Assembly: GCA_964016885.1 (NCBI GenBank) | Contig: OZ024752.1 | Coordinates: forward strand, 3,720,001-3,784,000 | DNA: 64,000 bases | Reading direction: 5' to 3' | Source of the DNA: Eledone cirrhosa | Taxonomy: Eukaryota | In this document: in pieces, positions 1 through 26,250 of the stretch | How positions within the stretch are numbered: position 1 is the first letter of the stretch | Layout: each line of letters starts with the position of its first letter | Notes under the pieces: model-generated | Seen by the model: the letters and a program-made list of their open reading frames with translations, nothing else | What the model was told of the DNA's origin: nothing | Databases searched by the model: none | Translations under genes and position numbers: made by a program

Positions 1-535
1 AGGACTTCCTGTATTTGGGAACAAAGATTGGGAATACGGAAGATGATGTGGTTGAGAGGAAGAGCAAAGCCTGGGCGGTGCGCCACAGCTGGAGATCGGT
101 GTGGAAGTTGGACCATCATAAAGACCTGAAAATCCACCTCTACATTTCTGTAGTGGAGTCTGTGCTGCTGTACGGGTCTGACACTTGGACACTGACCAAG
201 AAACTCACTCAGATGGTGGATGGGTGCTACACGAGAATGCTGAGGATGGCTCTGAAAATTAATCAGTATACACTGAGGATGAACAACTCAGAGCTGTCAG
301 AGCTGTAAGGGAGCCTCCCAAACGTTAGCTCAAAAGTGACACAGAGGAGACTGAGCTGAGCTGGACATGCTCACCGACATCCAGAGTTGACATTGCACTC
401 AGTGCTCCTCTGGGTGTCTCTAAGGACAGAGGAAGACCAAGGTTAATGTATGTAACGCAGGATATGGCAGCGATAATGAGGGACAGAGACCGCTGGAGAG
501 ACTCGTCCATGGATCTCGCGAATTATACCCGCCCT
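1..535 (+). mobile_element. RTE-clade LINE, degenerate 3' end of the RT ORF
   Basis: ORF 15..308 reads LYISVVESVLLYGSDTWTLTKK...DGCYTRMLRMAL. After a frameshift it continues AGHAHRHPE...RGRPR...MRDRDRWR, the typical RTE C-terminus. Confidence 0.8.
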
Positions 536-539
536 AGAA

Positions 540-817
540 TATATATTCATTTATACTGCCAATACATGAATTGAATAACCAAAACCGTAGCGGAATGTCA
601 CGTATCAAATCTTATATTTTGTCTGATGAAAACGTACTTAAACATACATTGAAATATGTATAATAAAATATATATTCTGATTATGAGAATATTTTTCATT
701 TATTAACAATTGCAATAATATTAAATATTCCAGGAAAATCTCTTGTCCAGTGCTTCTAATGTATTCTAAAATTGCATTTGTTGATTAATCAACGAACCGT
801 ATTAATCGTTGGTTATA

Positions 818-822
<5 letters not shown>
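540..822 (+). mobile_element. Penelope-like element terminal-repeat (pLTR) remnant
   Basis: Shares GGAATGTCAC...TATTTTGTCTGATGA...TTTTCATTTATTAA with the pLTRs at 1161-1398 and 52860-53056; ends in (TA)n. Confidence 0.6.
613..672 (+). ncRNA. Type I minimal hammerhead ribozyme, degenerate stem II
   Basis: TATATTTTGT-CTGATGA-aaacgta...tacatt-GAAA-tatgta-TA-ATAAAATATA. Stem I pairs and stem III is near-palindromic. Confidence 0.65.
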
Positions 823-1117: not shown

Positions 1118-1160
<43 letters not shown>

Positions 1161-1163
<3 letters not shown>

Positions 1164-1394
1164 ATATTAATAAATGAAAACTATATTTATAAAAGCATAT
1201 TTATTTTATTGTATATATTTCAATTGCAACCAAGGCAATTTATGGTGCGCTTTCATCAGATAAAATACAGATTTGTTTTATAAATAAATAGTGACATACC
1301 CGGAAAAAAAGACAACCTTAACGGTTGGAGCTTCCTGGATAGGATATTAAAGATTGTTAAGCTTGTTGAATCCCAACAAATTAAATATAACCTC

Positions 1395-1398
<4 letters not shown>
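1161..1398 (-). mobile_element. PLE pLTR remnant with degenerate hammerhead (1202-1267)
   Basis: Reverse complement reads TATTTTAT-CTGATGA-aagcgcacca...tggttgcaatt-GAAA-tatata-CA-ATAAAATA (U16.1 changed to C). The downstream tail matches 53010-53056. Confidence 0.7.
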
Positions 1399-1443
<45 letters not shown>

Positions 1444-1466
1444 GAATATATATATATATATATAAA

Positions 1467-1638
<172 letters not shown>

Positions 1639-1653
1639 TATATATATAAAGAT

Positions 1654-1953
1654 GGCTGGGAGTAGTGGCGTGCTCCTGTAATCTAGCTACTATGAAGCTT
1701 GGTTGGTCGGCCGGTTTGAGAATGGGGGTACTGGTAGTCGATCTTCTATGGCGATCGGGTGTCCGCGCTAACCTTGGCATCAATATGGTGCTGGAGAGGG
1801 AGCTCACTAGAACCAGGTTGACTAAGGAGGGTTGCTTCGGCCCAGGGCGGAAACGCAGCAGGCAAAAGACCCCGTGTTGAGCAGTAGTGAGATCGCGCCT
1901 GTGAATAGTTGTCGATTAGCAGCCTGTTTGATATAATTGAACACCAATCTCTT
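1654..1953 (+). ncRNA. RN7SL: Full-length 7SL (SRP) RNA sequence, probably a retrocopy
   Basis: Colinear with metazoan 7SL: Alu domain GGCTGGGAGTAGTGGCGTGCTCCTGTAATCTAGCTACT; CGATCGGGTGTCCGC; GGCATCAATATGGTG; helix 6 GGAG loop; helix 8 CCCAGGGCGGAAACGCAGCAGG; AGTAGTGAGATCGCGCCTGTGAATAG; ends TCTCTT. Confidence 0.95.
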
Positions 1954-2030
1954 ATATATAGATGAATATATATATATATAAATGAATATGTATATATATA
2001 TATATATATATTTGTATAAATGAATATATA

Positions 2031-2064
<34 letters not shown>

Positions 2065-2066
2065 GA

Positions 2067-2128
<62 letters not shown>

Positions 2129-2164
2129 ATAAATGAATATATAGAATATATATATATATATAAA

Positions 2165-3715
<1,551 letters not shown>

Positions 3716-24898: not shown

Positions 24899-26250
<1,352 letters not shown>

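Follow-up and report, generated by a model that had tools for sequence, protein, structure and literature searches.

A full-length, tail-less 7SL retrocopy in a TA microsatellite of Eledone cirrhosa, and U6 and 7SL sequences joined to Penelope-type repeats at predicted hammerhead cuts

Main findings

The window analysed here, a stretch of 64,000 nucleotides from Eledone cirrhosa (assembly GCA_964016885.1, contig OZ024752.1, positions 3,720,001 to 3,784,000 of the forward strand), carries a complete 7SL (SRP RNA) sequence which, judged from the DNA, is likely to be a young, non-functional copy of one 7SL gene. On its own the locus is an ordinary pseudogene, and its value is modest, being that of a tail-less, duplication-flanked small-RNA retrocopy found outside the vertebrates. 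That it was made from mature 7SL RNA by a TA-targeting LINE enzyme is given slightly better than an even chance. A wider reading of small-RNA ends across the genome yielded a second result: Penelope-type elements (PLEs) of this species probably copy Pol III RNAs in trans, their weak hammerheads cutting in vivo and U6 or 7SL RNA being joined to the cut RNA and written into TA repeats.

The 7SL copy, its ends and its target site

An Rfam search with Metazoa_SRP (RF00017), as proposed in the original prediction, gave a full-length match (model 1-299) at window positions 1655-1952 on the plus strand, scoring 228.8 bits where the gathering score is 70. The model is covered entirely, with neither a central deletion nor a LINE-derived 3' tail. 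The copy and its surroundings are composed as follows.

1399..1642, no strand: TA microsatellite upstream of the 7SL copy, with local AAATGAAT units, standing in place of the upstream element of the genes
1643..1654, plus strand: left 12-bp target-site duplication (TATATAAAGATG), matching 1953-1964 at 11 of 12 positions
1655..1953, plus strand: full-length, tail-less 7SL (SRP RNA) retrocopy, from the RF00017 match and the alignment of genome copies
1953..1964, plus strand: right 12-bp target-site duplication (TATATATAGATG), spanned by short-read contigs of runs X1 and X2
1965..2269, no strand: TA microsatellite downstream of the 7SL copy, without a T4
2315..2318, plus strand: first T4 downstream, the expected stop of a putative Pol III read-through, about 660 nt from 1655

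The complete 7SL sequence, the roughly 250 bp of TA microsatellite upstream, the CTCTT end running directly into ATATAT and the lack of both a poly(A) and a terminal T4 are all as first described. The extent needs a small correction, in that the 7SL sequence starts at 1655 and G1654 belongs to the 12-bp target-site duplication, while T1953 can be read either as the end of the 7SL RNA or as the first base of the right duplication. Insertion into a (TA)n tract likewise stands insofar as TA lies on both sides, but the tract is not pure TA and carries the local AAATGAAT unit. The boundaries of the copy are those of a transcript, beginning at +1 and stopping two T into the T-run of the parent gene, and the marks of a functional gene are missing: there is no T-run terminator, the nearest T4 on the 3' side lying at 2315, and the microsatellite reaches to -1 where the source genes have their upstream sequence. 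Lacking a terminator, the copy would, if transcribed at all, be read through into an RNA of about 660 nt. Sequencing runs recorded as RNA contain at most 0.11 of the words of the copy, and the runs with the largest share overall resemble genomic DNA. Minimum-energy folding did not set the copy apart from shuffled sequence (z -0.22, with 81 of 200 shuffles equally good).

The target-site duplication draws on the composition of the tract as well as on the match itself. Between 821 and 2269, AAATG occurs 11 times and AGATG only twice, at 1650 and 1960, one per junction; the left repeat unit stops after ATG, and the right unit continues whole. Compared under the same rule with 86 unrelated left flanks, the right flank of the 7SL copy matched two. 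With a looser rule, a 24-bp repeat can be aligned in a different register, and since the tract is periodic and permits such an alternative register, the reading as a 12-bp duplication is strong but not unique. The AAATGAAT unit was also considered as a tail added by a PLE or a LINE, a candidate that was rejected because, by eye, the unit is not a regular flank of other PLE-type or LINE copies. Very long degenerate TA tracts, of up to 5.8 kb, lie elsewhere in the window (36923-42702, 53055-56980, 24969-26232 and 44374-46069).

Source gene and age of the copy

BLAST returned 41 7SL matches in the 3.0-Gb genome of the species itself (44 candidates, 40 scored), among them two groups of genes.

G000:C12:42105148-42134272: array of 22 tandem 7SL genes (L004-L022, L024-L026), spaced 1.2-1.4 kb apart
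C12:42.858-42.860 Mb: pair of 7SL genes (L002, L003)

Genes of the array and the pair have a common upstream sequence and, in most cases, T-run terminators; their presence elsewhere in the genome disposes of the possibility that the window holds the main 7SL locus. U6 genes (C19:31.78-31.84 Mb) and U2 genes (C3:307.35-307.45 Mb) are likewise arrayed. The other 7SL matches, classed by their flanks, comprise six with gene-like flanks elsewhere, four chimeras tailed by mobile elements and six old fragments.

The window copy differs from gene L002 (C12:42.86 Mb) at six positions and from every other aligned copy at 12 or more, and it has A38, C54 and T298 (the CTT end) in common with L002, unlike L003. 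At one of the six positions the copy agrees with all 22 array genes, which leaves five changes (1.7%) that arose in the copy, at 1693, 1741, 1772, 1890 and 1929, and these five differ from both genes of the pair and from the array majority. Placed on the Rfam structure, three of the six differences break pairs, two are tolerated and one, the array state, restores a pair; none is compensatory, and standard base pairs number 96 of 120 in the parent versus 94 of 120 in the copy. The decay thus described appears neutral. Differences from the human sequence that keep the pairing had been offered as a sign of preservation, an argument that falls with the three broken pairs and with the finding that the helices cited are identical in the parent gene, and are therefore a property of the 7SL genes of this species. 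The copy looks intact because it is young. As a recent retrocopy, in contrast, the locus fared well, given its transcript-end boundaries, the loss of the upstream element and T-run, a source gene six changes away and the target-site duplication.

A working gene, relocated by DNA duplication and kept by selection, would agree with the high Rfam score and with most pairs being intact. It is nevertheless extremely improbable, as the copy has no flank in common with any 7SL gene, whereas dispersed DNA paralogues (L027, L028, L029, L034, L035) retain their gene flanks; it has, moreover, no terminator for 360 nt, and three of its five private changes break pairs.

The assembly itself was also considered. 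Long TA runs flank the copy on both sides, and read support is limited to the 3' junction, where short-read contigs from two of three runs (X1 and X2) cover 1907-1982 with zero differences; X1-X3 represent one sample, possibly the assembled individual, and the piece is absent among those listed for run X3 and for the RAD run X21. The contigs show that the 3' junction is no mis-join, which removes that junction from the (TA)n mis-join contemplated in the original prediction. On the 5' side, a mis-join within the microsatellite is very unlikely, since it is at odds not only with the clean 3' junction but also with the five changes relative to both pair genes and the array majority, and since the rare AGATG would not be expected to recur at the +1 side.

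Membership in a 7SL-derived mobile family had been proposed as well. Four other dispersed 7SL copies (L023, L030, L031, L033) do carry mobile-element 3' tails, and such tailed chimeras are described as the kind that gave rise to the hagfish SINE1 (PMC7245038). In searches by BLAST and exact motif, by which old, strongly diverged families could be missed, the 41 BLAST matches were accompanied by 30 exact 5' and 31 exact 3' motifs genome-wide, nearly all inside genes, four of the 31 being chance matches as the reversed control predicted, and no other 7SL match in the genome descends from the window copy. With these counts, with a window copy that has neither internal deletion nor tail, and with four chimeras that differ in their junctions and have no daughters among the matches, the copy can hardly be one member of a 7SL-derived SINE family. 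The four 7SL-headed chimeras instead show the starting material of a SINE1, as yet unamplified.

The enzyme behind the insertion

Four pieces of mobile elements lie in the neighbourhood of the copy.

1..540, plus strand: 3' end of a 5'-truncated RTE-like LINE, candidate source of the enzyme (genome search: 1804 candidates, 40 scored)
556..820, plus strand: second Penelope-type fragment, with a CTGATGA..GAAA core (motif scan of the window)
1158..1398, minus strand: Penelope-type element of 240 bp with a hammerhead-like core and TA on both sides (2940 candidates, 40 scored)
2270..3643, minus strand: broken Penelope-like element with an RT end, a GIY-YIG endonuclease and inverted ends (translation)

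The LINE at 1-540 is presumably of RTE type, a label given on characteristic features and not on a tree. Of 30 copies inspected by eye, 28 are followed by a TA run on the 3' side, and copy L048 contains an RVT_1 domain (Pfam, E 2.7e-24); no endonuclease domain was seen in the RTE-like loci. In nine of 24 copies examined (L049, L052, L054-L056, L058-L060 and L066) the 5' part is inverted, a pattern resembling twin priming. A further tail of 60 nt, ending in GTAAAAGA repeats, is joined to 21 U6 ends and to three 7SL copies (L023, L031, L033). Its parent LINE was not found in the genome, and the available part of PMC4758252 gave no identification. The U6 loci with this tail include L169, L175 and L221, and the tail alone stands in TA at L057 and L042. 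At least three TA-targeting systems are active in this genome, namely the RTE-like LINE, the parent of the 60-nt tail and the Penelope-type elements, and TA targeting, being common to the LINE, the 60-nt-tail U6 chimeras and the PLE-type copies, does not identify the enzyme.

Target-site duplications are more telling. Among the RTE-like copies, with L048, L050 and L067 left out as references because their 5' ends lie outside the loci, duplication-like matches were found in 6 of 21 testable cases versus 16 of 200 mismatched pairs (binomial p 0.005); the clear duplications measure 11, 12, 14 and 46 bp, two of the six positives are weak (L053, L059) and 15 of the 21 are negative. U6 chimeras with the 60-nt tail show duplications in 3 of 20 testable cases (one of 12 bp, one of 30 bp) versus 14 of 400. 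Penelope-type insertions show none in 34 testable (240-bp element 0 of 16, the repeat family found at locus L030 0 of 18), of which at most 28 have sound boundaries, the left boundary lying inside the element in six of the 18 L030-family copies. A Fisher p of 0.002 is too kind, since the RTE class had looser boundaries in the test. An earlier and looser duplication test (8/27 and 3/30, controls about 10%) was dropped in favour of this stricter rule. As duplications accompany the RTE-like and 60-nt-tail classes and not the PLE-type class, a LINE is likelier than a Penelope element to have placed the 7SL copy. The length of the 7SL duplication and its TA start agree with those of RTE-like copies L055, L056 and L064, though no LINE sequence is attached to the 7SL copy. 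Among the 73 dispersed U6 ends there is no join to the final 1.7 kb of the local RTE-like family, so that no copying of foreign RNA is seen for this family.

The enzyme, from the RTE-like family of this tract or from the LINE behind the 60-nt-tail chimeras, would have cut the TA repeat on both strands, 12 bases apart. Mature 7SL RNA would then have been reverse-transcribed from its tail-less 3' end by target-primed reverse transcription, priming presumably with the RNA end (UU or UUA) paired to the TA target over no more than one or two bases. Human 7SL is described as U-trimmed and mono-adenylated (PMC11838476), which fits the short end of the window copy.

The original prediction had the copy placed in trans by the (TA)n-targeting machinery that also placed the flanking PLEs. 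In general, PLE-type machinery copying 7SL is supported by L030, where 7SL is joined to a PLE-type family, as U6 is elsewhere, and was likely copied by PLE machinery; for the window copy itself it is less likely, the duplications pointing elsewhere. A Penelope-type reverse transcriptase with GIY-YIG endonuclease would here have inserted 7SL by priming on its 3' end, with no PLE sequence attached. Three PLE-type pieces do lie in the same tract as the copy, Naiad PLEs are reported to favour (TA)n with duplications often not discernible (PMC8557442), and an anole PLE to cleave both strands of AT-rich DNA (PMC11167929). However, duplications are absent from the testable PLE-type insertions, as given above, and the anole PLE is described as requiring a segment of its own RNA and starting internally (PMC11167929). 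All 12 small-RNA ends assigned to PLE-type families have a 3' PLE segment, 17-149 nt before the TA run, and the copy has none. An inverted arm is missing too, which weighs little, as one family has arms in 5 of its 29 copies, and 4 of the 9 U6 chimera loci have them. Of the marks of Penelope insertion the copy thus shows the microsatellite target, which is not diagnostic, and neither the PLE 3' segment nor the inverted arm. A Penelope origin of the window copy is therefore rated as doubtful.

Repair offers a route with no element endonuclease, in which 7SL cDNA or RNA patched a break in the fragile TA tract. The tail-less state of the copy and its near-zero priming homology are in keeping with this, as are two tail-less U6 ends (L178, L223) and a 5' U2 fragment (L179) in TA without visible duplication, and because 13% of the window consists of pure TA runs, landing in TA would require little targeting. 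Repair patches usually lack duplications, however, and the 12-bp duplication with exact ends fits staggered cutting and complete reverse transcription better, which leaves repair improbable beside insertion by a LINE enzyme. Small-RNA pieces without a tail do occur in TA, though rarely; the U2 piece at L179 (G000:C3:113045519-113045545) is a 5' fragment of about 40 nt.

U6 and 7SL chimeras at predicted hammerhead cuts

The U6 3' motif has 103 matches in the genome, of which 100 were listed, 30 of those in the U6 array, and 73 dispersed U6 ends at 71 loci were examined, with L170 left out as having no U6 motif. Eleven of these ends, at nine loci (L197, L210, L211, L176, L199, L181, L188, L201 and L226), run at constant positions into four TA-targeting repeat families, putatively of Penelope type, and four of the nine loci have head-to-head inverted arms. 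A 7SL counterpart is found at L030 (G000:C2:30716090-30716460, minus strand), where a 5'-truncated 7SL is followed by five T, a Penelope-type repeat and then TA. The 7SL of L030 and the U6 copies L201 and L226 are joined to one family at the same base, with the proviso that a 2-base T overlap at the L030 join makes L030 alone exact to within 2 nt. That the L030 family is of Penelope type is inferred from its TA target, two alternative 3' ends, inverted arms and predicted ribozyme; no ORF was found that ties it to an autonomous PLE.

For 12 loci, Rfam gave no hammerhead among the matches listed (150 of 163), and a type I hammerhead descriptor of our own was therefore used. In the L030 family, 9 of 29 copies pass this descriptor, each with a single predicted cut in 400 nt that falls on the join base; a further nine of the 29 lack any family sequence upstream of the join point. 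One of two copies of a second family passes, again with a single predicted cut, at the join, while a third family (0 of 2 copies) offers a by-eye fit with a 3-bp stem I and a fourth has no core. In a control of 300 shuffles the descriptor found no site. Since in two families the join falls exactly at the predicted hammerhead cut, Penelope machinery likely copies host RNAs here. Most of the segments that follow the join measure 78-125 nt. In the anole PLE the ribozyme cut lies at +26 and the internal start of reverse transcription at +111 to +118 (PMC11167929), a spacing close to that of these segments.

U6 or 7SL RNA may have been linked to freshly cut element RNA, whether through ligation by RtcB or through a template jump, cleavage and ligation at these joins being alike putative. 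Hammerhead cleavage leaves a 5'-OH, and the predicted cut would supply the 5'-OH that RtcB needs. RtcB is reported to ligate the cyclic phosphate of U6 to RNA with a 5'-OH (PMC6789731). A window copy that is the tail-less product of the same Penelope-type enzymes would be a further step, and an unlikely one. The 7SL case at L030 matters because ligation requires a cyclic phosphate, an end that 7SL is not known to carry. If this account is true, the fixed U6 and 7SL joins preserve in the DNA a trace of in vivo cleavage and of PLEs acting in trans, which bears on the open question of the role of PLE hammerheads, which has been called unclear (PMC8557442). For the anole PLE, no RNA reads that end at the ribozyme cut are reported to have been found (PMC11167929). 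Among the titles listed in literature searches, none concerned small RNAs joined at PLE ribozyme cuts.

Comparison with known systems

Mammalian 7SL processed pseudogenes, reportedly described by Ullu and Weiner in 1984, resemble the window copy in being dispersed, in having boundaries at the RNA ends and in their flanking direct repeat. The window copy differs in that the 3' poly(A), the mark of an L1-type processed pseudogene, is absent, in that the target is a TA microsatellite and not the L1 consensus site, and in that the genome is that of an invertebrate. Tailless retropseudogenes of therians and the anole (Noll et al. 2015, PMC5322556) are described as L1-dependent, internally primed and 3'-truncated by at least 10 nt. 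They too are small-RNA copies, complete at the 5' end and without an A-tail, and the duplication seen here falls within their 8-35 nt; the window copy, in contrast, is full-length and has at most one or two bases of priming homology. It therefore resembles a tail-less retropseudogene yet falls outside the published definition, which includes 3' truncation with internal priming.

RTE enzymes are reported to leave duplications without poly(A) (PMC6007223), and RTE can mobilise 7SL-derived sequence, as with the hagfish SINE1-1_EBu (PMC7245038). Such RTE-mobilised short retroposons, SINE1-1_EBu among them, have a 3' tail in common with their LINE and form amplified families, whereas the window copy has neither tail nor daughters; a central 7SL deletion is given as a further feature of SINE1 (PMC13023118). 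Chimeric U6/LINE-1 and 7SL/LINE-1 pseudogenes (PMC6789731, PMC11838501) are like the chimeras of the present genome in combining a small RNA, about five T and the 3' part of a retroelement, five T being found in 49 of the 73 U6 ends here. They differ in that the partners here include Penelope-type elements and that the position of the join is constant, at a predicted hammerhead cut.

Penelope-type elements of the window and other U6 chimeras

The 240-bp element has identical ends in the best 30 of its loci and aligns to repeats flanking a PLE-like ORF at 50192-51415. This 407-aa ORF on the plus strand resembles, by eye, a PLE RT end with a zinc-linker GIY-YIG region, and it is enclosed by inverted repeats near 50136 (minus) and 52955 (plus) that are related to the 240-bp element; a Pfam search gave no match for it. 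The GIY-YIG region of the broken element at 2270..3643 was recovered by Pfam with E 0.00037 and 21.2 bits, slightly below the cut-off of 22.6. Four pieces of the window, including 556-820, 1158-1398 and 2300-2340, all fail the strict hammerhead descriptor. The last of these resembles a hammerhead, with CTGAAAA as its core, and lies on the plus strand, opposite to the PLE ORF; its possible cut coincides with the other end of the element near 3643.

U6 is also joined to the 5' ends of repeats that, by eye, are labelled tRNA-headed and SINE-like, at L166, L172, L177, L219, L224, L230, L191, L195 and L235.
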